Source of the DNA: a virus
Reading direction: 5' to 3' (one strand)
Virus record (IMG/VR): IMGVR_UViG_3300025096_003363
Location: 34,843-98,842 of that record
DNA length: 64,000 nt
In this document: one piece after another, positions 32,205 through 55,539 of the stretch
How positions within the stretch are numbered: the stretch's first letter is position 1
Layout of the letters: each line of letters begins with the position of its first letter
The notes under the pieces: model-generated
What the model was told of the DNA's origin: nothing
Seen by the model: only the letters and a program-made list of their open reading frames with translations
Databases searched by the model: none
Translations under genes and position numbers: made by a program

Positions 32205-32215
32205 TACAATAAAGT

Positions 32216-32449
32216 ATGGAAAAACATAAATTTAAATTAAAAGATGGTTCAACGAAAACTATGGAATTTGATGAATTGGTTCGTTGGGCTTGCTTGGTAG
32301 AAGCACTGGAAGTAGTCGGGGGGAAGGAAGATATAGATATTGAAAGTAATAAATGGATTAAACCATTAGCATTTCAAAAATATATTGATGAGCGATTCCA
32401 CTCAATGAAGCACGATCTTAAAGTTGAAGCTACTCTAGGTAATTTATAA
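32216..32449 (+). CDS. Hypothetical protein
   Basis: ORF with TATAAT/TACAAT just upstream. Confidence 0.55.
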   Translation: MEKHKFKLKDGSTKTMEFDELVRWACLVEALEVVGGKEDIDIESNKWIKPLAFQKYIDERFHSMKHDLKVEATLGNL

Positions 32450-33271: not shown

Positions 33272-33282
33272 ATTATTAATTA

Positions 33283-36200: not shown

Positions 36201-36660
36201 TGTTTTTAAAAGAGTTTGGAGCTCCACCACCGCCCAGTTGAGGGTAAGCGACAACAGTCACACCAACATCTATTAGTCCAACGTCCGGGCTGCCTAAATT
36301 TGAAGCCGCAGGCTCTACCGCGGTAGTTGGCTGATTAGGATCCGTATCCTCTGTGTCCGCGGTTGATGGTCCCGTAACGACCGGAACGACCGGATCAATT
36401 GGAGACACCGCACCTGGAGACACCGCACCTGGATTACAAAGCGCTGGGTCAGGTGGCACCTCATATGGGCCAGCCGCTGACATCCGGATCTCAGGCTGCA
36501 CCTTATATGGCCCGGCTGCTGACATCCGCCAGCCGGGTGGCAGCTCCGGTTCACTTCCTTCCCCGGCATATGGATCATATGGCCCGGCCGCTGACATCAG
36601 CCAGCCAGGTGGCAGCTCCGGGTCACCGCCATTCACGGAATATGGATCATCTATTGGCAT
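33283..36660 (-). CDS. Large repetitive virion-associated protein with Ala-rich coiled coil, trypsin-like domain and Pro/Thr-rich tail
   Basis: SPIHFVMSKHW (His), DISVG (Asp), GDSSAP (Ser); MSAAGP repeats; TTPPY repeats and poly-Thr. Confidence 0.65.
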   Translation of the reverse strand: MPIDDPYSVNGGDPELPPGWLMSAAGPYDPYAGEGSEPELPPGWRMSAAGPYKVQPEIRMSAAGPYEVPPDPALCNPGAVSPGAVSPIDPVVPVVTGPSTADTEDTDPNQPTTAVEPAASNLGSPDVGLIDVGVTVVAYPQLGGGGAPNSFKNTTGTVNVDYVQVSRELDGEVEIFIEDYQTKEELWDGASGTTPASVWGLPTPWVNINADGLTLIADQVAEDGSMDVTISLQQFVEGKPVSQRITQNIPNPQDEFRISQEQVDQLRQQEEEAVRAADAAAKAEASAQAEAEAAELAAQAAVDAAAAQAERTAAESAAQTAARAAANAAAQAKAESIAQAAAEVAAEALAAAEAAKAEAEAARSQADAEATAQAAQATKAEEQITQGRRLYTAATPDKPTTAGRLSKAGEATSDAIRDAEVAARKAAAYEAEQKSLEQARLRQLQEEAAAVAASKAAIAEEARIERERQEAESEQNETTRQELLNAANQRRLEARRSFRDSILPTLSLEELTQRLQADQQRLTDINSGVEDDPSGMLSEWLLEDIQVYLTRIFTLTVQQQRESPEPESETKKLINRLLVSNLPIAGKLDISGISERGVGFNPNNWRAATEKSITMVSPIHFVMSKHWDVRYPGDSADGVVNFIDKDGNRVTRNIVERIKIGDRSLDISVGIFDSPVENTAIYPVPEPRTDYNYILQDSYVVTVDAERKSIPRVMTFDRGRSERGANPETVSIALPIPESSFQELLERGDSSAPSFIYTNNTPILVETHTTTGGGPFYGNPDTQNEINAAMERLSHNAGSPSYVLQTVDIDKAISASKPITYQPDQVADPILPPGWVMSAAGPYDPNAGEGSDPFELPSGWRMSAAGPWDPNAGEGSEGPIIDPGGLDPTDPRTKIEETDDTTQTKEGPIIDIDSGGLDPLLKKDVFVDPYLEEEDDDVTDPSTREEVIDTPSGLENTNDLPGSNWPGGYTNGGPSGDFKIYDDPTTPPYTTPPPYTTPPPYTTPPYTTPPYTTPPYTTPPYTTPPPPCTVPPTRVPPTIIVEPPLPQPPDPPDPPDPPQPEPEPEDPVFIYPAPILPLQVPFLIEEQIITTTTTTTTTTTTTTPAPTTTTTTICPEDPDCNNLQF
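33326..33710 (-). repeat. Coding tandem repeats: poly-Thr, (PPD)x3 and (TTPPY/TTPPPY)x7
   Basis: GGCGGATCC x3 and GGCGGCGTCGTATAA-type 15/18-nt units visible in the DNA. Confidence 0.85.
34031..34170 (-). repeat. Two copies of a ~75-nt repeat (LPxGWxMSAAGPxDPNAGEGS)
   Basis: CACTTCCTTCCCCGGCATTTGGATC at ~34032 and ~34107. Confidence 0.85.
36464..36620 (-). repeat. Three further copies (one full, two partial) of the MSAAGP repeat at the 5' end of the gene
   Basis: ATATGGCCC/GGCC(G/A)GC(C/T)GCTGACATC units matching 34031-34170. Confidence 0.85.
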
Positions 36661-37559
36661 TATGCTGTTATACTAGATACGGTAGTATATGGTTTATCTG
36701 GCAATGTGCATAAACTTGGAGTTAATACGGTTTCTGTGAGTACTTCACTTCCTTCATAACCTTCAACGTGAAAATCTCTCAGAAAGAAGTCTTTCGCGCT
36801 TAGTGAATATCCACCTGCAGCTGCAGGTGTAGTTGAAGAAATTGGAGTGCTAAATGCAAATCCACAATAGATATTATCTAAATTAGATAACGTACTATAT
36901 CTAGACCCCATGTCAATTGCTGTTAGCAGAGTATACGTAGTGGTATTACTATCTCTTGAATCAATATATAGTGTTCTGCCCAAATTAACATATCTAAATC
37001 GTAATGTTCTATATGTATCAGTAGATATAGTACTAAAACTAGTAGATATAGAAGATAAATGATTATAAGCCAATACATTATGTAAATAGTCACGAACTAC
37101 AATTGACTCTCTTAATAGCTGATTCGGCTTTACACCTGGACGATCGTCTCTCCCAGTTAATGCATAACGCCCGGTTGAATCAAAACCAACCTTTACTAAC
37201 ATACCGCTTAATACAGCACCTTCTAGAAGAACTGTAGAATCGCCTTCAGTCTTTAATACTTCTGGTGTTTCCGTTAATAACGCATGCGCAGATAATACAA
37301 ATTCAGGGTCCTGATCACCGAGATATTGCCCAGGTAGAGTAGATATTGGTTGTACGAGATTTGTTAAAAAGGTTGAAAATCCTAGTTCATAGTTATGAAA
37401 TTGAGCTGTTGAGCCAAAACTTGTACTAGGTAATTTATACTGAAAGGACCACGTAATATCATAATTCGAATTAAACGCTTTTTTAGACTCAACAAACGTA
37501 TAATACCTTGCTAAAGAAGGTAATGATATATCAGACGGAAATCCTGCTAATGCTGCCAT
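36660..37559 (-). CDS. L-type (legume/ConA-like) lectin-fold virion protein
   Basis: DITWSF, GFSTFL, GQYLG, VKVGFDSTG and YCGFAFS pattern; TAAATA 5 nt upstream. Confidence 0.5.
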   Translation of the reverse strand: MAALAGFPSDISLPSLARYYTFVESKKAFNSNYDITWSFQYKLPSTSFGSTAQFHNYELGFSTFLTNLVQPISTLPGQYLGDQDPEFVLSAHALLTETPEVLKTEGDSTVLLEGAVLSGMLVKVGFDSTGRYALTGRDDRPGVKPNQLLRESIVVRDYLHNVLAYNHLSSISTSFSTISTDTYRTLRFRYVNLGRTLYIDSRDSNTTTYTLLTAIDMGSRYSTLSNLDNIYCGFAFSTPISSTTPAAAGGYSLSAKDFFLRDFHVEGYEGSEVLTETVLTPSLCTLPDKPYTTVSSITA

Positions 37560-37575
37560 ATATATATTTAATTAC

Positions 37576-37788
37576 TCATTCCTTTATAAAAAGACAGGTT
37601 AGAGAATTTGTTTTCTTAATCTGCGTCTTGAATGCTAAATCATATCCAAGTTTCCCTAATTCTATGTATAAAGTCTTAAAATGTTTAAAAGGGACATTAA
37701 GAAGAACACTATCCAACTCGCTATCATATATAACGTAGTCGGAAAACTCTTCACAGAGTGCACCAGCTCTGCAAAAACTTGCATTCAT
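37576..37788 (-). CDS. Small hypothetical protein
   Basis: ORF with TAAATA 5 nt upstream. Confidence 0.55.
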   Translation of the reverse strand: MNASFCRAGALCEEFSDYVIYDSELDSVLLNVPFKHFKTLYIELGKLGYDLAFKTQIKKTNSLTCLFIKE

Positions 37789-37796
37789 ACAAGTAT

Positions 37797-37964
37797 TTAT
37801 TCATTATCGAATACTTGTATAATTTTATTAATTTTTTGAATTAAAATAGAATTATCTGCCAGTAGTTGTTCTTGTTGTGCTGTAAAAGACGTGCAGTTAG
37901 TTAATATCTGTTTTAATGAAACAAAATCTTCAAAATCTAGACCTTCAACTATAACCTCTTCCAT
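37797..37964 (-). CDS. Small hypothetical protein, 55 aa (below the ORF-track cutoff)
   Basis: Read manually: MEEVIVEGLDFEDFVSLKQILTNC...QVFDNE*; its TAA is part of the next gene's TAAATA. Confidence 0.55.
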   Translation of the reverse strand: MEEVIVEGLDFEDFVSLKQILTNCTSFTAQQEQLLADNSILIQKINKIIQVFDNE

Positions 37965-37996
37965 ACTGTAGTTATATTATTAGTACTATAAAGCAA

Positions 37997-39655
37997 CTAG
38001 TTCCATTCAAACACTACAATTCCAGTGGTAGGTACAGGCCCGGATGGTTTTTTACTATGTGATCCTTGACCACCGCCATATGCTGGACTGTTACCGTAAA
38101 AACCTGAACCACCCACTCCTTCTTCTTCGCCACTATCGTCTGTATCTACATAACCGACGCCACCTACTAACGATATTGTTTCTGTTGGTAAATAAAGACT
38201 GTCAGCAATAACCGGTGTAGGTGCAGTAGTTGAATTGTACAAACCACCTTTAGCTCTAACTAATGGCGCTGTCGGATATCCGCCGGGTTCGTATATATAA
38301 CTAGACTTTCCACTAGTAAACCCTACCGGTGGAGCACCTACAACAACTGGGAATTGTGTACCTGGAGGTGCAGAGAGATAGCCAATTGCTGTTGATCCAG
38401 CATTACCACTTCTGCCTTTTCCAGGAGAGCCAGATCCAGTTACATAAAACTTAACGTACGAAATGCCATTTGGCATTGTAAATGTATGTGTTACACCTTC
38501 TGCATTAAAAATTCGAATTCCGGGCTGAGGTCTTGTTATTTGTATTGTACCGCTAAGTGGGTTAAAAGAAGCATCAGTTTTATTTTCCGTTACACCTGAT
38601 CCTGATGTAATAGTCGCAGATAGGTTTTTCCCGACAGTTAATGTAGGGCTAGTTACACCTCCAAAGGCTTTAATAATAAACGACATTCCTATAGCAGAAA
38701 CACCAGGGCTGCTTGAATGAGCTGTTGTTACCCCTACTAATGTACTGTTAGCAGGCGATGATCCCTCCATCCATCCATATAATGCAGTACTACTCAGATT
38801 TGGAAGAGTAAATGTATTGGCAGAAAAATCTCTTCCATATTTGCCGCCTGTTGCAGTAAGAAGTTCTGAATACGTTACAGCATCAACAGCCTGCCCATTA
38901 CAATTTAACCAACCATACGGCGCAGCTGATATCGGACACGCATACGGCATAATAGTTCCAATTGGAACCAAAGCCGCTGTAGTTGGAGCTACCGGTGAAT
39001 ATACTATTTGAGGTACTTGCCAAGCAAGTTGAGCCTGCCCTGCGCCATCCGTTGAACTGTAACCTAGGAATGTTTTAGCTTGCGGTGATGTTGCTGGAAA
39101 AGTATAATCGATTGAGTTAACTTTTAACTTTGATGGTAACGAAAGATAACTGGTAAGACCTGAGTCCCTTTGAATTATACCGTCTATGCTAATTCTAGAA
39201 CTTAATGCTACCTTATTAGACCCATCAAGAGTTAATGAGCTTCCTAATGCATTAGTAGATATATTTCCTGCGGATAATGTACCAACAGTAATTTGATTAG
39301 CCGCGTTAATACTAATTGTTGTATCTCCGGCGCTTATTAAATTCGATACTGTTACCCAGTCTGAAGCTGCAGCTCCTGTACCGGTAACACATACTTTTAT
39401 TTCATGGTTATCTGAATCATAACCATAGTCTCCAGTTAATACAGGTGCTAAAGTAGTTAAATTAGCTGCTCGCCCGGCCCACTTGTTTCCAACAATTACC
39501 CCACCTTTTGTTGTACCATCACCGACAAATAATCTCACCGTATCAGTCGTCATCCCAAGCTCACCAGTCTCGAGGGTAATTTGTTGTCGATCATAATTAG
39601 TCCCTCTCCTAACAAGGAGCTTTAACAAGGTATTTTCTAAAATTTCTATGGCCAT
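37997..39655 (-). CDS. Tail fibre protein (Mtd-N-like N-terminus, tail collar domain, Gly-rich C-terminus)
   Basis: LLVRRGT...GELG.TTD..RLFVGDG; PIGTIMPYA...GWLNCNG...FTLPNL. Confidence 0.8.
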   Translation of the reverse strand: MAIEILENTLLKLLVRRGTNYDRQQITLETGELGMTTDTVRLFVGDGTTKGGVIVGNKWAGRAANLTTLAPVLTGDYGYDSDNHEIKVCVTGTGAAASDWVTVSNLISAGDTTISINAANQITVGTLSAGNISTNALGSSLTLDGSNKVALSSRISIDGIIQRDSGLTSYLSLPSKLKVNSIDYTFPATSPQAKTFLGYSSTDGAGQAQLAWQVPQIVYSPVAPTTAALVPIGTIMPYACPISAAPYGWLNCNGQAVDAVTYSELLTATGGKYGRDFSANTFTLPNLSSTALYGWMEGSSPANSTLVGVTTAHSSSPGVSAIGMSFIIKAFGGVTSPTLTVGKNLSATITSGSGVTENKTDASFNPLSGTIQITRPQPGIRIFNAEGVTHTFTMPNGISYVKFYVTGSGSPGKGRSGNAGSTAIGYLSAPPGTQFPVVVGAPPVGFTSGKSSYIYEPGGYPTAPLVRAKGGLYNSTTAPTPVIADSLYLPTETISLVGGVGYVDTDDSGEEEGVGGSGFYGNSPAYGGGQGSHSKKPSGPVPTTGIVVFEWN

Positions 39656-39667
39656 ATGTTTTAATAT

Positions 39668-41215
39668 TTAGTAGCTAAAAACAGGTATTGCAAATCTATC
39701 AAACGTTTCAGTACTCTCTTCACTTCGTACGTCGCCGGATAACGCCATTGTAATAAATCCTGCAGAACTTAATTTAATATTATTTCCGGCTGAAGTTAGT
39801 CCTTCACATATTTGCTGTGAATATTTACCACCGAAATTATTTTCAACCTGGTTAGGAGCTCCATTAAAGATATTTAAAACAGGATCTTCAGCGTATTTTA
39901 TAATAAAGTTAACACCTGAAGCACTTAAAGTTGTGCCTGGTGTTGGACCAGATAGACTACCATCAGTAGCACTTAAATATAAGGTTTGTGTACCGGTTGT
40001 AATAGCGCCGTTAGCACCATATAATAAAACATCACCACCGGTGAGGTTTGGTACTTTAAAGTCGGTCATATTTGCACCGCCGTAAGTAGTTCCGATCTTA
40101 TCAAATAATTGTCTATATTCCGGTCGAGCTGTTGCGTTAAGACTGTGTCCGTTGCATAATAAATACCCAGCTGGGGGGAGTGTAAACGCTTGTGCATGTG
40201 GTAGTATCGAACCGATCGGAACACCGTCACCCGCTCCACTACCTGAAAGACCGGTAGCAGTAATGACATCAAATACAGAGCTTTTAATTTCAGTAATTAA
40301 TCCTTTGTTCGTGTCTAAGAAAGGCATCTCCATAAAGGCAGATGTAGCTCCATTTAATGTTACTGTACCGTTGTCATTTGTAATAAGTGCACCATCAACT
40401 GACTGTAATACAGCTTCTAATTTATTTGTTGCTGTGTTTACTTGTAATCCGCCGCCTAACCTACCATCTGTTGTTGAGGTACCATCTCCAGGTCCGGCCC
40501 ATGATGAAATACTAACATTCATCGCCCCAACATCTTTGAGCTCTAATTTATTATTAGTATCAAATTTAAATTGCTGCTCATTAATACTTAAAGCTAATTC
40601 TTCACCATCCCCACCCTTTAATCCGCTAGATGCTGGAAATAAGGCCTTTATCTCTCTTTTAGTTATAGAGTTTTGCTTTGGTGTTAATCTCCCGTCTTTA
40701 CCAGGCGCGCTAGATAACTGTAAATAATCAGTGTTAAATGCAACATTTACATTACCATTAACAGCAGATAATAGAGCATCCCCAAAAAACGTTCCACCTA
40801 AATATTCTGCATCAATTGCGTTTTTTGATAGCGTAAGCTTATTATTGGTATCAAATTCGAGGAATGCACCATCTGGAACTGATCCTATATAACTCCACCC
40901 TGATAAAGTGTTTGTATATGCCCTCCCGGTTGCCGATGCGCCGGAGAGTATATATAGCTTGTTTTTCGCGTAACCAATATCACCAACCTGTAAATATGGT
41001 GACTCACTAACCGCTGGGCCTAAACTAGCATCAGCAGCAAAAGGACCCACATTTACGTTACCAGCTACCTTACCACCGTAAGTAGCCCCATCACCGACAA
41101 ATAGTCTTTTTGAATCTAGGGTATAACCTACTTCACCTTGATCCAATACGATCTCCTTTCGTTGGTCATCAGTACCTCTCCTAACTTTTAATTTTACTAT
41201 AGTAATATTTGCCAT
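39668..41215 (-). CDS. Tail fibre protein (Mtd-N-like N-terminus, tail collar domain), paralogue of 37997-39655
   Basis: KVRRGT...GEVGY..D.KRLFVGDG; PIGSILP...GYLLCNG...LF..IGTTYG...FKVPNL. Confidence 0.8.
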   Translation of the reverse strand: MANITIVKLKVRRGTDDQRKEIVLDQGEVGYTLDSKRLFVGDGATYGGKVAGNVNVGPFAADASLGPAVSESPYLQVGDIGYAKNKLYILSGASATGRAYTNTLSGWSYIGSVPDGAFLEFDTNNKLTLSKNAIDAEYLGGTFFGDALLSAVNGNVNVAFNTDYLQLSSAPGKDGRLTPKQNSITKREIKALFPASSGLKGGDGEELALSINEQQFKFDTNNKLELKDVGAMNVSISSWAGPGDGTSTTDGRLGGGLQVNTATNKLEAVLQSVDGALITNDNGTVTLNGATSAFMEMPFLDTNKGLITEIKSSVFDVITATGLSGSGAGDGVPIGSILPHAQAFTLPPAGYLLCNGHSLNATARPEYRQLFDKIGTTYGGANMTDFKVPNLTGGDVLLYGANGAITTGTQTLYLSATDGSLSGPTPGTTLSASGVNFIIKYAEDPVLNIFNGAPNQVENNFGGKYSQQICEGLTSAGNNIKLSSAGFITMALSGDVRSEESTETFDRFAIPVFSY

Positions 41216-41219
41216 AATT

Positions 41220-42302
41220 TTATGCTATTCGTCGCCATACGTACGCACCATACGACGGCGGAATGTTATTGTGTTTTGTTCCATCACCTACAGCTGTAGA
41301 CGGCTTAATATTAGATGCTCCTTCATTTACAACTACTTGTTCATCTCCTTTTGTTACCACTGTTGCTGAACTTTCATTAGTAGCTAATTCCCCAGCTGTA
41401 GCCTGGCCTAAATCAACAGCACCTAACTCCCTACAAAATGTATATGCATCAAAATCCCATTGCGCTCCAGCCCCTCCAGGAAATTCACTTGCCACAAACC
41501 GTGTTTCACCGTTCCATAATCCAATCATTTCCTTATAACCATAATCCGGATTTTCTAGGTACGCGGCCCTTTGAATTGCAGAATAAGTAGCAGCAGATCC
41601 TAGTAAGAAATTAAGATCTAATGTTCTTCTTATAACATCCTGTGGGTCGCTAGGGTTATTTGTTCTGTTTCCAAAATCGTTATTCCAATTCCATCCACTA
41701 GCAGCTCCAAGTTGATTTCTTCGCCTCTGCTGCTGTGCCCATGCTTGTGTTGAATTTGTTGTACCAGCGCCAGTAGCAACAAAAACTTGCCCGTTACCTA
41801 CATTAGAACCGGTCGCGACAAAAACATCATCAGCTCCAACATTAGTGTCGTGCCTATGCGGCGGTAAGTTTGCAATAGTAAGTTCTGTCATATACTCACC
41901 AGCTAGATTTCCAGATTCTTCTGTGTTTTCGTAATCAGTACAAAATTTTCTAAAATCGTTATTTTTATCCGTAAAATCTCCAACACCTACTAAAAATCTA
42001 CCCTGTGCAATTTGCTCCCAAGTAGTCCCTGCTATTCTTGTTTGTGGGTTAACGTTATCTAGAGTTAATTGTATACACCCGACAGGAAAAAATGCTGTTA
42101 ACCATTCTGTAGGGTTTTCAGCAAACCCTTCCGGGTATATGTAATTATTAATTACTACTCTATTACCACTTAATTGTAACCCGGTAGAATTACCAGCTCC
42201 ATCAAACACTTGATTTAACGAGTCTCCTAGCTCTGACCCACTTAAATGGAGCAAAGAAGTATAAAAATCAGATATAAATTGATTTGTTAAACTCTCCGGC
42301 AT
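41220..42302 (-). CDS. Baseplate/short-fibre protein with a gp10 C-terminal-like domain
   Basis: FPVGCI...NP...GTTWEQIAQGRFLVGVG...LT.ANLPPHRH...HNNIPPSY..YVWRRIA. Confidence 0.7.
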   Translation of the reverse strand: MPESLTNQFISDFYTSLLHLSGSELGDSLNQVFDGAGNSTGLQLSGNRVVINNYIYPEGFAENPTEWLTAFFPVGCIQLTLDNVNPQTRIAGTTWEQIAQGRFLVGVGDFTDKNNDFRKFCTDYENTEESGNLAGEYMTELTIANLPPHRHDTNVGADDVFVATGSNVGNGQVFVATGAGTTNSTQAWAQQQRRRNQLGAASGWNWNNDFGNRTNNPSDPQDVIRRTLDLNFLLGSAATYSAIQRAAYLENPDYGYKEMIGLWNGETRFVASEFPGGAGAQWDFDAYTFCRELGAVDLGQATAGELATNESSATVVTKGDEQVVVNEGASNIKPSTAVGDGTKHNNIPPSYGAYVWRRIA

Positions 42303-42334
42303 ATTACTATTATTTATGTCACAATTTGAAAATA

Positions 42335-45172: not shown

Positions 45173-45187
45173 ACTTATATATTTATT

Positions 45188-47314
45188 TTAGTAATCCAGA
45201 CCTCCACCGTCTGGGTTTAGTTCTTCAAATTCAGCGTCTCCTAAGACAATATTACCGAAAAAATCATCATCTGGTGAAGCTTCTAACTCATGTGATGTGT
45301 CTGTTATACTGTTTAAAACTTCTTGTTGTAAGTTAAATAACTGATCTATTACACGTGCTACAACGCTATAATCCACTGCTTCATTTTCATGAAACTCCAT
45401 GTCTCTAAAATTAATATCTGTACCTTTATAAGTGGTGTAATCTCTTAATACAGGTATACCATCAGAGACGGTTTCAGCAGGTATAACACTAAGATTTAAA
45501 AATATTTTTACTGTATCTTTAATAATATTTTGAATTTCACTATTTAAAGAGCTTCCTAAACTAGATTCACAACTAGTTATTTTTTCATATAAATTCTCAA
45601 GATCTAAGGGCACGAAGTTTTGATACAGTAAGTTACTTTCTTTAAACAAGTATATACGACCAATAGTATGCAGTAAGAAAAATAAGTCTGTTTCATTCTT
45701 AGCAACGAGGTAATTTATATAATTAAAATAGTTAGATCTTAATGTATTTGAATTAAACTTTTTCTGTATCAAATTAAATCTCTCACCTGTATTATCAAAA
45801 TACATATCAGGTAAATAAAGCAAATTTTCAGGTGAAGCAAACCCAGCAACCTGCGTTGGATTTGATATAAATCTAGTCGAAATAAACCCCTTATCGTTTA
45901 ATATAAACATATTAGAGTCGTTTTGCGAAAAATATACATCTATATCTTCTTCCCTCGCCGCAAAACCGTAGTTAGGCCTATACCGGCGGACGATTTTTGG
46001 CTTTAATTTAGGTCCTAAGTTAGTTATATTTTCTGCATTAATATGGTATAATAAAAATACATTAGAATTCCCATCCGAAACACTGTTAATCTTTTCTGGG
46101 TCATTATTAGCCAATCCACCGGCATTTGGATCTATATCTTGAACAGCCATCTCACCGGCTCCTGGTTCTGTTAAGATCAATATAGAATCATCCGTATCTC
46201 TTATATCAAATGCAATTATTTCCTCGTCAGCGTCTATCGTTGTTATAGTTTTAATTAATTTATTCGAATATTTGTTTCTAATAGCAATATAAGATATGGT
46301 TTCAGTTTTATCTGATAAACTGTTAATTTCTTCTTCACTTAAAATATCTTCATCAAAAGTTCGAACACCACGAACAGGGGGCAGCTCTTCTATTTCAACA
46401 CCAGGTCTTGGAGCCCCGAGAGGTATTATTTCATTATATCGATACCCTAATAAATCCTTACCTATCTTTACTACCTCGTCTATAATTTGCTCTTGTATTT
46501 CAATCCTGTCAACCAGTTTTAATTTTTTACAAGGATTAACAAAACTATTATCATATAAATTAAGCTGTATTTCATTCGTACCAGCAGACAAGCTATAAAG
46601 TATATCGGTTGAATTATCGTATGTGAATCTAGTAGAACCTTTAAATAAACTTTCCCCGGTATCCTCATCCGGTGTAATAGGTATAAAATTACTATTTTTT
46701 ACAAAACTTCCAGAGAACGTGTGAGCAGCTGTTGGTGTGGTAGTAAAATAAAAATATGTCTCATCATCGTACACAAATAAAGTGCTATCAATTGTGTCAT
46801 CCAATACATTAATACCGGGTACCTTATCGATAAAGCTAAAAGGATCTATTTGAATGGGAAATAGATTATCTTTAGCCATTTTTGTGTCATCATTTCGTAT
46901 ATCAAACTGACCACTAGATAGCCCTAAAAAATATGCATTTCCATCTGATGCAGAATTTTTGAAATTTAATAAATCCGTATTTGAGGTAATATTTAATGCA
47001 TATAAATTTAAATTGTTTTGATTTAGTATGCCTAAGTTGGTTTCAATAAAAGACTGATCGACAACACTTCTAGGTGAAACAACAGGCTTTGTTAGTATAT
47101 TAGACTCAACAATTGGTGTTGCTGTTCTATCAAATTCTAACTTCTCTAGTACACAGTTAGCATAAAAAGTATCTGATGATTTTAAAATCTTTGAAGATGT
47201 TGAGAAAGTTTTACCGGTGTAAGCAACACCGTCTCTTACATTGACAAACCCAGAGTAGGGAATCCCGCTTAAAGTAAACGAACCAGTAGTGGTGTATTTA
47301 AAGTATTCAATCAT
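45188..47314 (-). CDS. Probable virion (baseplate/tail) protein
   Basis: Long ORF coupled within the structural operon. Confidence 0.6.
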   Translation of the reverse strand: MIEYFKYTTTGSFTLSGIPYSGFVNVRDGVAYTGKTFSTSSKILKSSDTFYANCVLEKLEFDRTATPIVESNILTKPVVSPRSVVDQSFIETNLGILNQNNLNLYALNITSNTDLLNFKNSASDGNAYFLGLSSGQFDIRNDDTKMAKDNLFPIQIDPFSFIDKVPGINVLDDTIDSTLFVYDDETYFYFTTTPTAAHTFSGSFVKNSNFIPITPDEDTGESLFKGSTRFTYDNSTDILYSLSAGTNEIQLNLYDNSFVNPCKKLKLVDRIEIQEQIIDEVVKIGKDLLGYRYNEIIPLGAPRPGVEIEELPPVRGVRTFDEDILSEEEINSLSDKTETISYIAIRNKYSNKLIKTITTIDADEEIIAFDIRDTDDSILILTEPGAGEMAVQDIDPNAGGLANNDPEKINSVSDGNSNVFLLYHINAENITNLGPKLKPKIVRRYRPNYGFAAREEDIDVYFSQNDSNMFILNDKGFISTRFISNPTQVAGFASPENLLYLPDMYFDNTGERFNLIQKKFNSNTLRSNYFNYINYLVAKNETDLFFLLHTIGRIYLFKESNLLYQNFVPLDLENLYEKITSCESSLGSSLNSEIQNIIKDTVKIFLNLSVIPAETVSDGIPVLRDYTTYKGTDINFRDMEFHENEAVDYSVVARVIDQLFNLQQEVLNSITDTSHELEASPDDDFFGNIVLGDAEFEELNPDGGGLDY

Positions 47315-49683
47315 TTCTTGTAATCTATAAAATTGATATCGCTAATGTTTGCTGTCTTAGGTATTGAATTAGGTATATTAGATAAAATAATATTTCTAAC
47401 CTCATCTCGGATACTTTCATTAGTTATATTTAAATTCTTAACGTTAATATCAACAACATTACTCTTATGCTTTAGATTTGTGTTAATAGAGTTAACTAAC
47501 GTTATAGTATCTGTTAAGTTTCTCATACCACATGGTAATGATATTGTAATGTCTTGCACATTATTTAAATTAGAACTAAACAAAAATGCTAATTGTTCAT
47601 TTTCACTTAAAGGCTCTAGAGCTAAATATAAATTATCAATAGCAACCGTATCCTCTTGATCAAGAGCCGCATTTCGTAGTACTTCTATTTTTTGCTGCAC
47701 ATTGTCAGCGTCGATGTAATATACAAATATATCACCGAAAAGAAGTCTTTTAGTGTACATCTGATATGCGTTAATTTCAAATTCATAGAATTTAATTGAA
47801 TTTAAATATACCTTACCAATTCCTTGGACAGCATCAAAAGATAAAAATACATTATTCTTTTCAAATAAATCGATTTCAAAATTGTACTCAAATGTTGTTT
47901 TAGCTATTCTTGCTGATAAGCTGAGACCCTCTGTGCTGCTATCAAAAAATCTATATATAAATTTACATTTTTTTCCATTTTTTTCAAATCTAATGCCGCC
48001 ATGAACAGCGTTATATTCTGACTCTATATGAAAATCATCAGTATCATTTTGTATAGTAAATCCTAATCCAAACCCACCATTTTTATTAATGGTTGAAAAG
48101 TAATTATTTATTTTCCTATTTATTGATGACGTATCACAAAAGTTTGTAGGTGATTTTGCCACAAAATCATCTTTTGATATTCTAACATACTTATACCTCT
48201 TTGAAGGTTCAAAAACTAAGTCACTCTTTTTATCAAAATAAAACTTTTTAGTTACAGAAGTCTTTAAACTCGAGTTAGTCATTATTAAATTCTCCACCGT
48301 ACCATCATAGGTAACATTAAACGCTGGAACCCCGTTAAGAGCATTTTCCTTTGTAGTAACATCCGGGTAAAAATATCTATCAACCCATGTTCCACGCTCA
48401 CCTATGCCACCGGACAACCAAGTACAGAGATAAGTTACATTTTCACTCTTAACAGTGTTATCATCTAAGTTATATACCCTGTCCGCTAAATCCGGTGTTT
48501 TAAATGCAAATGACCCGCAATCTGCAAACTTAGTATCGTTAATGTTTATTTTATCAAAAGGTTGAAGTGATGAAGGTGTCGTAAAGTATGTAGTACCTGG
48601 TGTTATAACCAAATCGTAGTTATTGTATACATAGTTTAATGCTAGCGTTTCATTCTCTTCACTATCCACATCGGTAAAGATACTTGTATATGTTCTTAAA
48701 TCTTGTGAAAAAATAGTTGTTTCAGATGTGGATAATAAATTATTTGAAGAGGTAAACGAATCTTGTGTATTAACTATATTCTTTAGATTGAGAAAATTAA
48801 ACACTAGTGAATCACTATTACTTGAGCTGTAAAGCAGGTAATTTGATGGGAGGTTAAAATCACTATTACTATCTTTTACTTTACCGGTATCATCATATGT
48901 AATATATGAAGCATTATATGGTGATGGTACAGATAAATTTAACTCTTGATCAATTTTTATATTATATGAATTAATAAAAAATGCGTTGTATCTATTAGCT
49001 GGATCGAGATATGTTGCTACTACTTCTACACCGTTACTATTAATAGCATACTGATTTTTTGTAGCATCGACCTGTTTTGTGGAATACAGGTTGATGTAAC
49101 TGGTATTCAGGTACTTTGATAAATTATAATTTAAATTAAACCCGGATAGGGGTAATTGACTCTCAGCAACAAATAGTACGTTACGTGTCTCTGTAAACTC
49201 AGTACCGTCCTCTACTACAAGGTAATATTTAAAGTTATTTTTGCGAGTAGCTACCCTACATGTAAAACTATCTATCAGTTCAATCTCGAAAACATCACCA
49301 CTTATTGGACTAATGTCAGCTGTTCCATAATTTACAGCTTCATAAATTTTATTTTCAAGTTTAAAGGTACTTAAAGAAGCAGCTTTAAATTTACAAAATG
49401 CAGTGCCACTAAACCCAAAATTTAATGAAGTTGAATATTTACCTGGTTTTATGTTTGGTGAATTGTATGTAGTTACATCATCTAGAAGAAAACTATCCGT
49501 AAGATAAAAATTAGTATAGTTTAGATTTTTAAAACTTTGTGAACCAGATAGTGCTTGAACAAAATTTATTTTAAACCCCCCGTTAAAAGTCCTAGGAAAT
49601 TGATCTAATTCAATATTCATCGGGCAAAAGCTAGCCTCTGCTGAGCTAAGTGCACTTAGACTAGATTTTACTAAAGATCCCAT
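47311..49683 (-). CDS. Probable virion (baseplate/tail) protein
   Basis: Start reassigned to ATG 49683 (TAAATA 6 nt upstream); N/S/T-rich beta-type composition. Confidence 0.6.
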   Translation of the reverse strand: MGSLVKSSLSALSSAEASFCPMNIELDQFPRTFNGGFKINFVQALSGSQSFKNLNYTNFYLTDSFLLDDVTTYNSPNIKPGKYSTSLNFGFSGTAFCKFKAASLSTFKLENKIYEAVNYGTADISPISGDVFEIELIDSFTCRVATRKNNFKYYLVVEDGTEFTETRNVLFVAESQLPLSGFNLNYNLSKYLNTSYINLYSTKQVDATKNQYAINSNGVEVVATYLDPANRYNAFFINSYNIKIDQELNLSVPSPYNASYITYDDTGKVKDSNSDFNLPSNYLLYSSSNSDSLVFNFLNLKNIVNTQDSFTSSNNLLSTSETTIFSQDLRTYTSIFTDVDSEENETLALNYVYNNYDLVITPGTTYFTTPSSLQPFDKININDTKFADCGSFAFKTPDLADRVYNLDDNTVKSENVTYLCTWLSGGIGERGTWVDRYFYPDVTTKENALNGVPAFNVTYDGTVENLIMTNSSLKTSVTKKFYFDKKSDLVFEPSKRYKYVRISKDDFVAKSPTNFCDTSSINRKINNYFSTINKNGGFGLGFTIQNDTDDFHIESEYNAVHGGIRFEKNGKKCKFIYRFFDSSTEGLSLSARIAKTTFEYNFEIDLFEKNNVFLSFDAVQGIGKVYLNSIKFYEFEINAYQMYTKRLLFGDIFVYYIDADNVQQKIEVLRNAALDQEDTVAIDNLYLALEPLSENEQLAFLFSSNLNNVQDITISLPCGMRNLTDTITLVNSINTNLKHKSNVVDINVKNLNITNESIRDEVRNIILSNIPNSIPKTANISDINFIDYKK

Positions 49684-49720
49684 TAACAATATTTATGCTG
49701 TGTCTTCTTTATAAGATTTG

Positions 49721-50299
49721 TTATTGACCACCTCCGCTGTCCGAAGCTGCACCAGCCCCGCCACTTGCCGGGTCTTCTTTATATATTTTATTATCTAATT
49801 GTACGAGGAAGTCATCTTTTTTAGTAAGTAAGGTAAATCGCGAAGTATTATATTTATCATTCAAAAGATCCACACCAACTAACTCCATATCCTCTACAGC
49901 TTGGTAATATCCTTCAGTTCGTATGTTCATCGGAGCGCTTAATGTTGTCGTTTCACCGGTAACATACCCAATGTTTATTTTTAACACAACATATTTTTTT
50001 AATGCATAACTAGAAGGTTCATATATATGATGGTAATTATCAGTTAGATATTTTGGTGCCACGCCTTTATTAATTTCAGGGTAAATAGAATCTTTTGTGT
50101 AATCACGAAAAACCGAAACATCTGGTTCTAACACTGCAGTACCATCACCCCAGTCGATTGCTAGATAGTTAGGAAAGGTACCGGTATAGACATCTACCAA
50201 ATTTAATGCAAACTTTGTTACATCAAAGAGATCAATCGCTTCATAAACCTTTGATGCTCCGGTAGTGGTAGTGGATATAGAAAAAGTATGAGTGTTCAT
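49721..50299 (-). CDS. Probable virion protein with a PKD/Ig-like motif
   Basis: IDWGDG...HIY motif; in the structural operon. Confidence 0.55.
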   Translation of the reverse strand: MNTHTFSISTTTTGASKVYEAIDLFDVTKFALNLVDVYTGTFPNYLAIDWGDGTAVLEPDVSVFRDYTKDSIYPEINKGVAPKYLTDNYHHIYEPSSYALKKYVVLKINIGYVTGETTTLSAPMNIRTEGYYQAVEDMELVGVDLLNDKYNTSRFTLLTKKDDFLVQLDNKIYKEDPASGGAGAASDSGGGQ

Positions 50300-53274
50300 A
50301 GTATTAAAGCCGCAGCAGATAGAGGTGATGGTGATACATACGTCGCCGTTAATGATGGTATGGCTGAAGATAAAACAAAGTTCAAATTATTCAGATTGCG
50401 TGTGTTAGAGGCAGATTCCGCAAAAGTAAATGTAAACCTACTGTTGTTACAGACATAAACTTCAGAATTTAAAAATTTAATATCATCTACGTATTCAAAT
50501 AGATAATTAAACAGCACCGGCCCTTTGTTTTGATCTTTTAGTATAACCCCCAAGTTAAATTGCTCGTTATCGCTACTATACGTTAACAAGGGCTTGCTAC
50601 ACTCTATATAAGCAGCATCGCCCCCTGTTAGATTTAAAAATGCAGCAGAAGACACTGCTGGGTTACCTGTTGTAGGAAATATTTGTACACTCTTATCATC
50701 GATGTAACTATACTTGTAAATTTCTGGGTAAAATCTATCTCCCTTATATCCTAGCTGGTCTCTCGCCATCCTACAGTAAAACACATCATCCTCTACCTTT
50801 AACCTATTACTTACTTTATCAAAAAAGTTTGTATTTATAGTGAGAGAATTAGTAAACGTTCCTGGGCTAACAAACCTTTCGTCTTTATATGAAGTTCGCT
50901 CAACAACTAAATAACCACTGGTTTCAATAAACAACGTGCTATAAAAAATATCAAAATTAGTTACCGCGGAAGAAAGTTCGTTACAAACTGCGGTGTTGTA
51001 TTTTGTAGAGAGATATGATAACCACTCTGTAAGCTCTTTTACAGCAGGGGTATTCCACGCTGTATTTGTATTCTTTAAATAAATTTTGCCTAGGTGGTCT
51101 TGCTTATTAAAGAAGCTTTCTTTTGCTGATGTTACATTAGATATTGTAGTTTTAGAATCTACATTTGCGTTATACTCAAAACTCTCTTCATTAGGCGTGT
51201 AGTTAAATACTATATTATCTGTGAACCGCATTCCGTCATAGTTTTTAACATCATTTCCGGAATTACCAGAGCCACCAGATAATCGTACATCATAAGTAAA
51301 ATTACCTGTTAAATCATCTGTCCATGTATCTGTAGGATCACATAATGCTGTGAATAAAGTTTTGCCGGAGTCGGCATCAACATTAAAGAGACCTATTCCG
51401 GCTTCTACTAAATCTGAAAAATAAAACTGGTCACTACTAGTTGCGTAGGCACTTAACTGAGAAATGTTTAAGTCTCCAACTCGAGTGGCACTTACAGGGT
51501 CTGTAAGAAACTCCGAATCAGAAAATTTAAAATACGCCCCTTCTTTAATATCTGCATCTAGAGTCATAGACTCAGGCCGCCCATAATCTACTTCTAGGTA
51601 GTTTGAAGGTTTTTGTAAAGTTTGATAGGGGTTAAAATACCTAGCGAATATATTATATGCAGAGGTGGGAAAGCTTAACCAAGTGCTTGGAGTATCAGGT
51701 AGTAAACCGGACGGGCCTCTACCGGTAAAACCATTAGTAAATGTTGATAGGCCCGATCTTATAGTTTCGGAATACGTTGTCGTATCAGTTGTTTTATAAA
51801 CAAAATTATAGCCCTCGCCATACAGGTCATCAAAAAATTGATAACCGTTTAATAACAAGCTTTTTATTGTTTTCGGATTTTCTTGTACAATGTTACTTCT
51901 GTAATAATTGTAATCTTTTACTAAACCAAAGATATTTCCAAATAAATCCTTTTTACTATCATTTATATATCCTTGATCAAAAAGATAAGATAAGTCGGTG
52001 TTTAAATTCCTATCTTGTCCAATTTCAGAATTATAACCTATAAAAGCAGTACTATCTCTATCAGTATTAGGTTGATTAACTGCAATTCCTTTACTAGCAT
52101 TATTAATTGATCTAGAGGTATCAATAATAAAAGTTAATACGTTTTCTGTATTTGTAAATAAATTTGGATCCGGAAATATATATAATTGGTTAGGCGGGTA
52201 GGTCTTTTTAGTAAAGAATTTTAACCGCCGGCCTTCAATAGTTACGATTGAAGAATTTTGTGGTCTAAAGAACCCTAAATCTCTCTCACTTACAACTTCA
52301 CCAGAAAACACTGAAGCTGTAGAAGGGAAGTCTTGATTTAAAAAATTAGCATATGGTTTTTCTGCTTTAAATAAAATAGGAGGTAAATTATTTTCATCCA
52401 ATTCTGGCTTTCCATTTTCATCTGTGGCTAGATAATAAAAATCAGCCCCCATAAATTTTTCTGTTAGCTTCCGCTTATTATTAAACAGAGAATCGTCTGT
52501 AACATTAAAATCTAAAGTCTTACGACCTTCTTTAAGTGTAATTAAATCCTCACCAACATTAGCAAAAACCTGAGTAATTAATGACTCATCATCAGTTAAA
52601 AATATATTATCTTTTGGTAACCCAGCCGGATCATAGCTTTTAAAGGTTTTACCGTAGTCGCCTGCTTTTGGAGACCTGTTAAAGTACTGTGAAAAATTAT
52701 CAAAATACTCTGTTAGTGAGATTGATAAATCTCTTTTAATCTTTCCTATATCATAGTCTTTTGCAGCTGTGCTACGATTTTCGAGAAAGTTAATAACAAG
52801 ATCTATAGCAGCGCGCTCTGCACCTAATGAACTACCCTTTACTTTAGCTTTTGTAGTAGCATAATGAAGAGTTTGGCGCTTTTTCTTATAGTATGAAATA
52901 ATGTCTCTTATTTTACTACTATAAAAGGACATTGCGATCTCCATATCATATGGATCGGTAAAATCTAACTGTGTAAGAAACGTTCTTTCTGCATTAGTAG
53001 AAAAATTTAAAGTAATGTCTTTTAAAAAATCACGATACCGTTCGATAATTATATCCTTATTATCCTTAGCTTGATTATTCGTCTGAATATTCCACCTATT
53101 AAGATAGGTGTTATAAAAGTCTGTTAAAGTTTCTGGTTGGTAAGATTCACTTACCGTTTCAATAAACTGAACAAACGAAAATGGTGTAAATTTATCTAAC
53201 GCATCATCATGTTTTACATTAGGATTAGTTATAGATAAATCTACTTCAGGAAAGCCTGTAACAATAGTATCCAT
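50296..53274 (-). CDS. Large probable baseplate/tail protein
   Basis: 992 aa ORF in the structural operon; TAAATA 6 nt upstream. Confidence 0.6.
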   Translation of the reverse strand: MDTIVTGFPEVDLSITNPNVKHDDALDKFTPFSFVQFIETVSESYQPETLTDFYNTYLNRWNIQTNNQAKDNKDIIIERYRDFLKDITLNFSTNAERTFLTQLDFTDPYDMEIAMSFYSSKIRDIISYYKKKRQTLHYATTKAKVKGSSLGAERAAIDLVINFLENRSTAAKDYDIGKIKRDLSISLTEYFDNFSQYFNRSPKAGDYGKTFKSYDPAGLPKDNIFLTDDESLITQVFANVGEDLITLKEGRKTLDFNVTDDSLFNNKRKLTEKFMGADFYYLATDENGKPELDENNLPPILFKAEKPYANFLNQDFPSTASVFSGEVVSERDLGFFRPQNSSIVTIEGRRLKFFTKKTYPPNQLYIFPDPNLFTNTENVLTFIIDTSRSINNASKGIAVNQPNTDRDSTAFIGYNSEIGQDRNLNTDLSYLFDQGYINDSKKDLFGNIFGLVKDYNYYRSNIVQENPKTIKSLLLNGYQFFDDLYGEGYNFVYKTTDTTTYSETIRSGLSTFTNGFTGRGPSGLLPDTPSTWLSFPTSAYNIFARYFNPYQTLQKPSNYLEVDYGRPESMTLDADIKEGAYFKFSDSEFLTDPVSATRVGDLNISQLSAYATSSDQFYFSDLVEAGIGLFNVDADSGKTLFTALCDPTDTWTDDLTGNFTYDVRLSGGSGNSGNDVKNYDGMRFTDNIVFNYTPNEESFEYNANVDSKTTISNVTSAKESFFNKQDHLGKIYLKNTNTAWNTPAVKELTEWLSYLSTKYNTAVCNELSSAVTNFDIFYSTLFIETSGYLVVERTSYKDERFVSPGTFTNSLTINTNFFDKVSNRLKVEDDVFYCRMARDQLGYKGDRFYPEIYKYSYIDDKSVQIFPTTGNPAVSSAAFLNLTGGDAAYIECSKPLLTYSSDNEQFNLGVILKDQNKGPVLFNYLFEYVDDIKFLNSEVYVCNNSRFTFTFAESASNTRNLNNLNFVLSSAIPSLTATYVSPSPLSAAALIL

Positions 53275-53289
53275 TAAACATATTTATCT

Positions 53290-55539
53290 CTAGAACAGAG
53301 ATAGACTACTAAATAAGGAGTTTCGAATCATAACATCAAATACGTTATTAGCTCCTTCGAGGGCGCTAAGCGGGGTATTATAATCTAATGTTGTTAATCC
53401 ATTGGAATAGTCGATTAAACCACCCTCGATGGTGTTATCGTACGTTGCAGATAGACTATAAAATTTGTAAAACTTATCTACATCTGTAATACTAGCATAA
53501 GTTGCTGGTAATACTAAAGGCCACCCCCAATATGGGCCACCGCTAGTTGCAGGTGTCGCTGTAGTATTAAAATTACTAAGCATATAAGTCTGGAAATTAC
53601 CAGATTTAGAATATGAAGCTCCACTTAATGCAGATATTGGCTGATAAGTATTCAGTCTTGTATATGTGTCACTAAACTTTTCATACGCTACAATGTCTGT
53701 GCCGGCAGACACTTCGTAAGTTGATGTATCAAGTAATGCACTTAGATTTTTTCCATAAGTTGTTTTTGTTGTATGTCCTTTGGGGTTGTAGTTTTCATCA
53801 AATTTATTTTGTGTACCTCTAAATTTGTTATAATTCATACTGAGCACACTCATTAACCTATCCACTAATTCAGGTTGTTGAGCTAAAGATCGATCAAACA
53901 CGATCCCTTCGTCATCGGTTAGATCAGCTAAATTAATAAGAGAATTAATATCACAATAATCTATATCGCTAGTGTTTGATGTAAAGTTTTGAATTCTTTC
54001 CCAAATCTTCTTTCCTAAAACAGTATAACTACTACTAACGTTACCAAATATAGTTCCAATAAAATCAGTAAATAAGATATCCTTATCTAATAAAATTTCC
54101 TGGAACCGTAAATCCTTTATTGTTTGTTCAAAATCAAATTCTTCATTTTGCTTATATGCTTCGTAATAGTTTTTTGGATAACAAGTAAAAGCTGTATAGC
54201 CGGTTACTGTATTAGTTGTAGAGGTCGCAGTATTTTCATACGGACATTTTGCACTAAGTGTTAAGTACGCAGGCTCAGCAGAAAGTGAAGCAAGAGTATT
54301 ATCATTAAATGTTAAGAGACCTCTATACCAAAATGTTGTATCAAAAGAAGATAACGTAGCGCTTAAGCTTTGAATTGTATAATGTGATGCAGATACTTTA
54401 ACACCACTTACACCCGGAATTATTTGTGGTGTTTTACCTGATAACAACGAAAAGGTTGGTGTTAAGTGACTAGACAAGGACTTCATTGTATAGTAATCCT
54501 GATTCTTTGGTGAAAGAATAAATGGTATACCCAATCCTTTGTACTGAACTGGAGATACAGCAAAGGTAGCTACACTGTCACCTTCTCCTGGAATACCATT
54601 TGAGGTGATTGCTATACTACTAAGAGTTTGAGCAGAAGTTGCGCCAACTAAAGATGATAGTGTAATAGTAAAGTTGTTGTTGTAGTTATTATTTTTATAA
54701 CCAGTAGTGCTATTAGAGAATATATTATCTCTATCCTTAAAGAAAGATACGTTAATAGTGTTGTAAGGTGCTTTTTGTCCGTCAGTCTTAAAATATACTA
54801 CTTGATCTCCCGAGCTTCCTACATTAATACTTGATATATGCGTGCTTAATGAGTTTACTATTGCAAACGCACTCGGGCCTTTACCACTAGTGTAATTATT
54901 ACCACTTAACCGCACATATATGTTTGCAGAAGAAAGAGAAATCTTGTCTATATCCTCATACTCAAATCCAGATAGTGAAGGTATGTATTCTTTCTTATAA
55001 AATGAATTAAACTTTTTAAGATTATTAAACCTATTAGCATTTAAATTATAATAATTAGGTACATCACACCCAGACACCGAAAAATAAATATCTTGAAAAT
55101 CTTGATAGAAGGGCGACTGTGAATTAATTGTTATAGCATTAGAAAATTCACCTGCTGATAAATTTAATATATTTGTCTTTACAGGGCCAGCGGTAACTGT
55201 AAAGGTGTTAGTTATGTAATCAAATATTTCAACATCTGTGCTATACGACGCTAATATTGAATTATTATTACAATCACGTAACACCATTCTGACATTGTAT
55301 ACCCCGGGGTATTCGTAAACGTGGTTACTGGTTAATGTATTACCATAAGTACCGTCGCCAAAGTCGAAAGTAGCCTTTAAGGTATTATATTGGGTTGTTA
55401 CCGCCACACCGCCGAGAGAGCTAGGTATACGAGCCTTAAAAGTTAGCGGGGTAAAGGGTAGATTATAAGAAGATAACTTAGCTTCTCGCTTATAATCTTC
55501 TACGTCAAATGTCGCATAGTCTACTTTTATATTACTCAT
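53290..55539 (-). CDS. Baseplate wedge-associated protein with a PKD domain (gp7 position)
   Basis: FDFGDG...NHVYEYPGVYNV PKD motif; directly downstream of gp6. Confidence 0.6.
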   Translation of the reverse strand: MSNIKVDYATFDVEDYKREAKLSSYNLPFTPLTFKARIPSSLGGVAVTTQYNTLKATFDFGDGTYGNTLTSNHVYEYPGVYNVRMVLRDCNNNSILASYSTDVEIFDYITNTFTVTAGPVKTNILNLSAGEFSNAITINSQSPFYQDFQDIYFSVSGCDVPNYYNLNANRFNNLKKFNSFYKKEYIPSLSGFEYEDIDKISLSSANIYVRLSGNNYTSGKGPSAFAIVNSLSTHISSINVGSSGDQVVYFKTDGQKAPYNTINVSFFKDRDNIFSNSTTGYKNNNYNNNFTITLSSLVGATSAQTLSSIAITSNGIPGEGDSVATFAVSPVQYKGLGIPFILSPKNQDYYTMKSLSSHLTPTFSLLSGKTPQIIPGVSGVKVSASHYTIQSLSATLSSFDTTFWYRGLLTFNDNTLASLSAEPAYLTLSAKCPYENTATSTTNTVTGYTAFTCYPKNYYEAYKQNEEFDFEQTIKDLRFQEILLDKDILFTDFIGTIFGNVSSSYTVLGKKIWERIQNFTSNTSDIDYCDINSLINLADLTDDEGIVFDRSLAQQPELVDRLMSVLSMNYNKFRGTQNKFDENYNPKGHTTKTTYGKNLSALLDTSTYEVSAGTDIVAYEKFSDTYTRLNTYQPISALSGASYSKSGNFQTYMLSNFNTTATPATSGGPYWGWPLVLPATYASITDVDKFYKFYSLSATYDNTIEGGLIDYSNGLTTLDYNTPLSALEGANNVFDVMIRNSLFSSLSLF

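Follow-up and report, generated by a model that had tools for sequence, protein, structure and literature searches.

Baseplate and fibre proteins of a T4-core myovirus, represented by the IMG/VR record IMGVR_UViG_3300025096_003363, carry a short motif, leucine-serine followed by alanine, glycine or serine (LS[AGS]), far more often than their composition predicts. We analysed a window of 64,000 nucleotides, positions 34843-98842 of this 98.8-kb contig (G000), and coordinates below are those of the window unless noted otherwise. The ten proteins encoded at 36660-55539 contain 57 LS[AGS] motifs in 6,104 amino acids, against 10.7 expected from the composition of each protein. A sequence-only reading of this DNA had earlier counted about 57 in these structural proteins, a figure that we reproduced exactly, and had noted 17 in a single 749-residue protein where about 2 were expected; our computed expectation for that protein is 1.67. 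Comparison with relatives supports the view that LS[AGS] is a short linear motif under selection throughout a very large clade. We tentatively read it, at somewhat less than an even chance, as a serine tag that is recognized in trans and would be O-glycosylated.

The excess persisted when composition was corrected for. Whole-protein shuffles gave 11.0 ± 3.5 motifs (z = 13), and shuffles within blocks of 15, 30 or 60 residues, which keep local composition, gave z = 12.9-14.3; no shuffled set held more than 26 motifs. With the two strongest proteins removed, 30 motifs remained against 8.5 expected (z = 7.9). The choice of motif was not cherry-picked, because an unbiased dipeptide scan of the ten proteins ranked LS top (88 versus 45.7, z = 6.3) and an unbiased tripeptide scan placed LSA (21 versus 2.7) and LSG (20 versus 3.7) top among non-trivial counts. 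Clustering of the sites was not significant (P = 0.34). At these sites serine is encoded by both TCN and AGY codons and leucine by both TTR and CTN, and 47 different 9-mers encode the 57 sites; this mixture rules out a motif at the DNA level and therefore places selection, or the signal, at the level of the protein. Tandem or dispersed repeats and shared modules were also ruled out, as paralogy among the motif proteins is limited to a pair of fibres and a pair of gp10-like proteins, which bears out the earlier claim that the motif spans unrelated folds and is no tandem domain repeat. Scarcity of the motif in replication proteins, claimed at the same time, was overstated: open reading frames (ORFs) for non-virion proteins hold 12 motifs against 14.7 expected (0.81x, P = 0.29), which is chance level.

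LS[AGS] is strict at all three positions. Within the ten proteins, 57 of the 88 LS dipeptides are followed by alanine, glycine or serine, and LS followed by any other residue is flat (31 versus 35.4 expected). The residue preceding S[AGS] is leucine in 57 cases, valine in 12 and isoleucine in 9. [IV]S[AGS] (21 versus 15.2) is flat, and the VSA, ISA and TSA variants noted by the sequence-only reading show no significant enrichment. LT[AGS] (13 versus 10.5) and the reversed motif [AGS]SL (17 versus 10.9) are similarly flat, LN[AGS] and LG[AGS] are both at expectation, and the motif [S/T]-[G/A/S]-S shows no excess (23 versus 23.9). The sole extended context is a serine or threonine directly before the leucine (37%), at -2 relative to the motif serine, which yields an S-L-S context.

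The 749-residue protein is the best reporter of the motif, and its homologs show how the motif is maintained. Its 120 closest homologs (45-97% identity) carry a mean of 14.7 LS[AGS] against 1.8 expected; most query sites are retained in 80-95% of them, with alanine, glycine and serine interchanging freely at the third residue. Motif leucines are more conserved than other leucines (0.87 versus 0.64), and motif serines more than other serines (0.78 versus 0.56). A profile search of 1.8 billion representatives recovered many remote full-length homologs. Pooling 49 of these gave 323 motifs against 61.4 (5.3x), with LSA the most over-represented tripeptide (z = 28) and only mild excess of the near-cognates LT[AGS] (1.7x) and [IV]S[AGS] (1.8x). 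The 297 motifs of the 46 homologs with less than 40% identity are spread over 100 alignment columns, a scatter that alignment error at such identity may inflate; most query sites are unshared and density stays at about 5x. From scattered columns at sustained density we conclude that density is maintained while positions turn over. Six motif-poor homologs correspond to five separate changes on a quick family tree. A replacement motif was sought in these homologs and none was found, and G006, the contig for the motif-poor homolog P0262, still shows about 2-fold motif enrichment and is without the replication module.

The same pattern holds at the level of the locus. Throughout the relatives in IMG/VR the motif is, in most cases, missing altogether from the gp6-like protein, and the next four or five proteins downstream of it are enriched. 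Across 54 gp6-anchored IMG/VR loci, down to 37% identity with the seed, downstream ratios range from 1.9 to 6.4 and in most cases lie at 4-5.5. The ORFs upstream generally do not rise above expectation, although a few loci do. No clean motif-free relative was reached inside the clade among the sampled loci. Outside it, 21 structural proteins of T4 contain 14 LS[AGS] against 12.4 expected (1.1x), 13 structural proteins of the marine cyanophage P-SSM2 contain 9 against 12.2 (0.7x) with no similar tripeptide signal, and 35 giant PKD-repeat proteins (123,664 amino acids) contain 161 against 164.7 (0.98x). These counts rule out a generic trait of Ig/PKD folds or of T4-like tail proteins.

The G000 genome is incomplete (CheckV completeness estimate 47%), and the contig is cut within the tail-sheath gene at 63645-63998; related contigs reach 170-221 kb. 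It encodes a gp23-like head protein, portal, prohead protease, gp13- and gp15-like neck proteins, and a baseplate set of gp6-, gp25/53-like and gp10-like proteins. The head protein is at most about 32% identical to that of any cultured phage, and the 749-residue protein and its remote homologs gave zero matches among 50,697 cultured phage records. Because cultured matches are lacking and homologs of the 749-residue protein derive from marine metagenomes such as TARA, we place G000 in an uncultured marine T4-like lineage.

We next describe where the motif occurs. The ten motif-rich genes lie on the minus strand, and in order from 36660 they encode a familyless protein of 299 residues (36660-37559; 4 motifs versus 1.05 expected, and 5-6 in relatives); two fibres with Mtd_N and Collar domains, of 552 residues (37997-39655; 6 versus 1.37) and 515 residues (39668-41215; 10 versus 1.21); a gp10_C-like protein of 360 residues (41220-42302; 2 versus 0.37) and its 945-residue gp10_C-like paralog, which has a weak GP38-like match (42335-45172; 3 versus 1.2); baseplate proteins without known family of 708 residues (45188-47314; 3 versus 0.93) and 792 residues (47311-49689; 6 versus 1.28); a 192-residue protein (49721-50299; 1 versus 0.21); a further baseplate protein without known family, of 992 residues (50296-53274; 5 versus 1.39); and the 749-residue outer baseplate protein (53290-55539; 17), in which PKD and a string of Ig-like domains precede a poorly modelled C-terminal part. 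The upstream edge of this block is the gp6-like baseplate wedge (55532-57379, minus strand), with 1 motif versus 0.62 in G000 and 0 in most relatives. At the other side, the operon ends in a hypervariable distal fibre protein of 1,125 residues (33283-36660, minus strand; 0 versus 0.91). Summed over six genomes this fibre holds 5 motifs versus 6.0, which is chance, and we rejected active avoidance. The sequence-only reading had proposed that exposed virion proteins acquired the motif independently; this fits neck, baseplate and proximal fibres and fails for the most distal fibre.

Further motif-bearing proteins lie outside this block. A familyless protein of 438 residues (60948-62264, minus strand) has 2 motifs versus 0.40, both near the C terminus. 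Outside the window, four more G000 proteins carry 2-5 LS[AGS] each, all above expectation. They are the major head protein (2 versus 0.5, at internal sites 208 and 230); a familyless protein of 204 residues encoded immediately downstream of the major head gene (L057:2916-3530 in genome coordinates, minus strand; 4 versus 0.37); a gp13-like neck protein (5 versus 0.8); and a 406-residue gp15-like sheath stabiliser (L057:10839-12059 in genome coordinates, minus strand; 3 versus 0.4). In the last of these the T4-gp15 domain spans residues 9-219, and the motifs, at 247, 325 and 374, all fall within a lineage-specific C-terminal extension past that domain. The 204-residue protein is a candidate capsid decoration protein, and a syntenic 199-residue ORF, its counterpart in the relative G007, has 3 LS[AGS]. 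No enrichment was seen in the gp6-like wedge, small wedge subunit, portal, protease or a 459-residue tail protein. G007 also encodes two adjacent giant ORFs of 2,283 and 2,260 residues (G007:C1:123557-137212; L085/L086), with 3 motifs versus 3.7 and 3 versus 3.5, so some large putative fibres of the clade are without the tag; one of the two has BppL_N-like similarity to G000 at 599-1684. The interval 32001-44000 has a G+C content of 0.40-0.44, against 0.32-0.37 in the remaining window, and holds a family 2 glycosyltransferase (GT2) gene, the hypervariable distal fibre, the 299-residue protein and the collar and gp10-like fibres; this composition suggests that the distal tail genes have a separate history, possibly one of exchange.

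Glycosyltransferases (GTs) were the proposed readers of the motif, and we searched for one that follows it. As claimed, a GT2 gene ends the fibre operon (32444-33271, minus strand; PF00535, E = 2.8e-8). It is 69-87% identical in G002, G005 and G004 and has homologs in G009, G012 and G013 (45-70%). The gene is cleanly absent from G007 and G008, where both flanks are syntenic, and is also missing from G010 and G011, which are near-complete. Motif density is just as high in G007 and G008 (6, 8, 6-7 and 16-19), and G010 is motif-rich at the baseplate locus. The operon-end GT2 is thus dispensable and was ruled out as the obligatory reader.

The only GT of the window found to track the clade is a 413-residue, GT4-like enzyme of GT-B fold with a disordered proline-rich N terminus, encoded in the replication block (13199-14440, plus strand). 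We found it in 12 of the 15 clade contigs tested, both near-complete genomes among them; the three that lack it are 28-38% complete. The relatives that carry it are G002, G004, G005, G007, G010-G013 and G016-G018; it is highly conserved and has zero matches among the 50,697 cultured phage records. Its nearest fold neighbours are MshA, BshA and WaaG, with GtfA/B and SdgB at Foldseek ranks 31 and 38; the T4 DNA glucosyltransferases AGT and BGT are not among its top 50 fold matches. We found no relationship of the enzyme to GtfA/B or SdgB at the sequence level. The sequence-only reading had pointed out that this gene follows an exact TATAAATA, the T4 late-promoter octamer. As evidence for a late promoter this is weak: TATAAATA ends 2 nt upstream of the ATG, and on both strands of the window the octamer is under-represented (4 versus 14.1 expected from shuffles), such that we found it unconvincing as the late promoter of this GT. 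Late promoters of the G000 phage probably differ from the T4 consensus.

A third GT of the window, a conserved Glyco_tranf_2_5 enzyme of 219 residues (22908-23567, plus strand), is translationally coupled to a stand-alone class-II amidotransferase (22249-22911). Given this coupling near preQ0 genes, it is a candidate DNA modifier. At 1164-1820 and at L058:12425-14663 the phage encodes GTP cyclohydrolase I, a PTPS/QueD-like protein and a QueE-like 4Fe-4S protein. Together with the amidotransferase-GT pair, these genes are consistent with a DNA modification of 7-deazaguanine type that may be glycosylated.

Sugar metabolism is concentrated in an island of 22 co-oriented ORFs at about 14.8-33.2 kb of the genome, most of them glycan-related. 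Its products include GDP-mannose 4,6-dehydratase (Gmd), two more SDR enzymes and an aminotransferase, as well as a radical-SAM/SPASM protein, a cupin and an AsnB-like amidotransferase. Among island GTs, two GT47-like proteins are above cutoff and a third is weaker, with marginal GT11-like, Nucleotid_trans and GT2 matches besides. The anchor GT2 of the island lies at genome 30857-31654. An ORF of 224 residues (L061:199-873, genome 19498-20172, minus strand) matches PF01973, the MptE-like/DUF115 family of Maf type (E = 2.2e-13, 50.8 bits versus a cutoff of 34.6), and also gives a weak CST-I sialyltransferase match. Genes for nonulosonic acids (NeuB/PseI-type synthase, CMP-transferase) were absent from the 21 Pfam-scanned island ORFs, four of which had no hit, in what is a partial genome. 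Transmembrane-like segments are found in none of the 22 island ORFs, and no Pfam family for a membrane oligosaccharyltransferase, a flippase or a lipid-linked donor was found among them. The lack of membrane segments implies an acceptor in the cytoplasm, which could be DNA, a protein or a lipid carrier of the host. We tested four motif-bearing genomes, two of them 96-100% complete. Each has GT2 domains and 3-4 epimerase/dehydratases, and only G000 has GT47 genes.

Our preferred interpretation is that LS[AGS] would be a selected tag on neck, capsid-surface, outer-baseplate and proximal-fibre proteins. We infer that the tag would be read in trans by a soluble enzyme within the infected cell, that its serine would face solvent at a strand end, with the leucine buried and the small residue leaving room, and that this serine would be O-glycosylated by a phage GT using phage-made nucleotide sugars. 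The 413-residue GT4-like enzyme would be the candidate primer of the serine, the variable island would extend and diversify the glycan, and the particle would leave the cell partly sugar-coated. A tag read in trans is favoured because the motif is strict, occurs in at least eight unrelated proteins, is missing from the same folds elsewhere and turns over in position. The complete scheme, in which an abundant ocean clade of worldwide distribution uses a strict Leu-Ser-small sequon to direct cytoplasmic O-glycosylation of many different virion proteins, the GT4-like enzyme primes and the fast-evolving island diversifies the coat, strikes us as possible and rather doubtful.

Several observations count against glycosylation of the tag. 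The motif is real and spans unrelated proteins, as the sequence-only reading held, and the glycan genes of the phage go well beyond the three GTs listed there, but none of our results ties the serines to a glycan. No GT was found to co-vary with motif strength: the operon-end GT2 is missing from motif-rich G007 and G008, and the joint presence of the 413-residue GT and the motif counts as one event at the level of the clade. This enzyme has a generic GT4 fold and lies between replication genes, beside an 857-residue gene taken as DNA polymerase; because of that location it may act on DNA and could equally be a DNA glycosyltransferase. Island content is fluid and differs strongly between relatives. 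Its PF01973 ORF has no BLAST match in G002, G005 or G004, of which only G005 is informative, since the island region is missing from the contigs of G002 and G004. Virus GTs are able to hypermodify DNA with a variety of glycans (Pyle et al. 2024, as cited in PMC12619734), so DNA is a serious rival acceptor and the island itself may serve it. P-SSM2, which encodes its own GTs and epimerases (PMC12801897), combines glycan genes with absence of the motif. Threonine barely replaces serine (LT[AGS] 1.2x here and 1.7x in remote homologs), the most distal and most exposed fibre protein is at chance, and depletion of LS[AGS] was sought in non-virion proteins with none found significant.

Some of the evidence fits a structural role equally well. 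The leucine might anchor a strand end in the core, the serine cap the strand or turn by way of a hydrogen bond from its side chain and the small residue permit a tight turn. The beta-rich virion proteins of the clade would have converged on this arrangement, with nothing reading the motif; we consider this possible, if on the unlikely side. The AlphaFold model of the 749-residue protein is of moderate quality (pLDDT 67), with a confident, beta-rich part at residues 1-455, and Foldseek matches it to strings of Ig-like domains (S-layer proteins, pilins, integrins). Residues 1-455 hold 13 of the sites; read from secondary structure and pLDDT, most motifs in this part of the model sit where a strand begins or ends, and several adjoin low-confidence loops. 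The leucine, often with a hydrophobic residue at -2 relative to it, would then lie on one face and the flanking serine or threonine and the motif serine on the opposite one. Site positions are conserved down to 45% identity, which again suits a structural role as well as a tag. When the motif serine is replaced, the turn formers glycine (29%) and asparagine (25%) are its commonest substitutes, against 6% and 12% at other serine columns, although these counts are dominated by a few alignment columns. A structural idiom would also account for the lack of depletion elsewhere in the proteome and of a co-varying enzyme. It should, however, tolerate isoleucine or valine for leucine, and threonine, asparagine, aspartate or glycine for serine, whereas [IV]S[AGS], LT[AGS], LN[AGS] and LG[AGS] are flat. 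Nor does it explain why the same folds are motif-free in PKD giants, T4 and P-SSM2, why the motif recurs in at least eight unrelated proteins of several folds, or why remote homologs shift its positions yet keep 5x density.

Strictness, occurrence across folds and positional turnover would fit just as well if the tag were read in trans for another end, such as phosphorylation, acylation, nucleotidylation or docking of an assembly chaperone or cement protein. The link to any GT is not firm, and the phage has many unannotated late genes; we nevertheless identified no kinase, acyltransferase or chaperone candidate, and glycan-related enzymes are the only accessory class that is both large and conserved in all the motif-bearing genomes tested. 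We regard this alternative as unlikely. That the motif is a neutral or compositional by-product, of a DNA motif, mutational bias or recent duplication, is highly improbable. Elevated serine, glycine and alanine content of the motif proteins is all that speaks for it; the variety of 9-mers, the local-composition shuffles (z about 13), the flat reversed motif, the lack of repeats and an excess that persists across lineages with gp6-like identities to one another as low as 37% effectively refute it.

If LS[AGS] serves for glycosylation, phages of a major ocean group would exit the cell with sugar-coated neck, baseplate and proximal fibres. This would affect adsorption, how readily virions stick to marine particles, resistance to proteases and recognition by grazers or hosts. 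It would account for the large soluble glycan islands of marine phages, to which modification of the host surface or of DNA is usually ascribed. The complete scheme would be the first in bacteriophages in which a sequon directs the glycosylation of multiple virion proteins. A strict three-residue sequon paired with a soluble enzyme would also be a useful tool for glyco-engineering. If the motif is structural, it would be an unusual, lineage-wide tripeptide idiom that spans unrelated folds.

Known systems offer partial parallels. GtfA/B and SdgB are GT4-family protein serine O-GlcNAc transferases that act on serine-rich repeats of Gram-positive adhesins. They have the GT-B/GT4 fold in common with the clade-conserved 413-residue enzyme, whose closer fold matches are, by contrast, the small-molecule and lipopolysaccharide enzymes MshA, BshA and WaaG. 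The T4-type DNA glucosyltransferases are GT-B enzymes of the replication module that act on a hydroxymethylated base. With its GT-B fold and its place in the replication block, the 413-residue GT may or may not be such an enzyme; AGT and BGT are outside its top 50 fold matches. Chloroviruses and giant viruses glycosylate capsids and fibrils with virus-encoded cytoplasmic machinery that includes Gmd and many soluble GTs, and they do so at non-canonical sites. The virus-encoded sugar-nucleotide pathway with Gmd and the many soluble GTs are shared with G000; these are eukaryotic viruses, however, and their glycans are mostly N-linked. We know of no LS[AGS]-like motif described for them.

Maf-type enzymes of Aeromonas, Campylobacter and Clostridium are soluble and O-glycosylate exposed serines and threonines of flagellin in the cytoplasm before assembly (PMC9290775, PMC11339370). 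Hydrophobic residues flank the serines preferred by Maf in A. caviae FlaB, as in S159-L160-S161, and mutating these flanks severely reduced motility and flagellin levels, for which the authors consider stability or folding a possible cause (PMC9290775). The obligatory leucine at -1, the S-L-S context and one island ORF with PF01973 recall this system. Maf-type glycosylation has no known sequon and accepts threonine (PMC9290775, PMC11339370), whereas the motif here is strictly Leu-Ser-small, and nonulosonic-acid genes are absent from the scanned ORFs. A short sequence element is familiar from PglB (D/E-X-N-X-S/T), which like PglL is a membrane oligosaccharyltransferase working in the periplasm with lipid-linked glycans (summarised in PMC11339370). 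Here the strict tripeptide is defined statistically and its acceptor role is predicted; unlike that machinery, the island proteins are all soluble, and virions assemble in the cytoplasm.

Closest in setting are the mycobacteriophages Che8, Corndog and Myrna, whose virions are O-glycosylated by phage GTs (Freeman et al. 2023, as cited in PMC12619734 and PMC12801897). According to the summary in PMC12619734, their glycans sit at the C termini of capsid and tail-tube subunits. G000 does not follow this C-terminal pattern, as its sites are dispersed and those of the head protein are internal. Both have GTs of their own and structural proteins as the proposed acceptors of a cytoplasmic modification; G000 differs in that the putative acceptor is a dispersed tripeptide, present up to 17 times per protein and mostly in baseplate, fibre and neck, and in that its glycan is a proposal.

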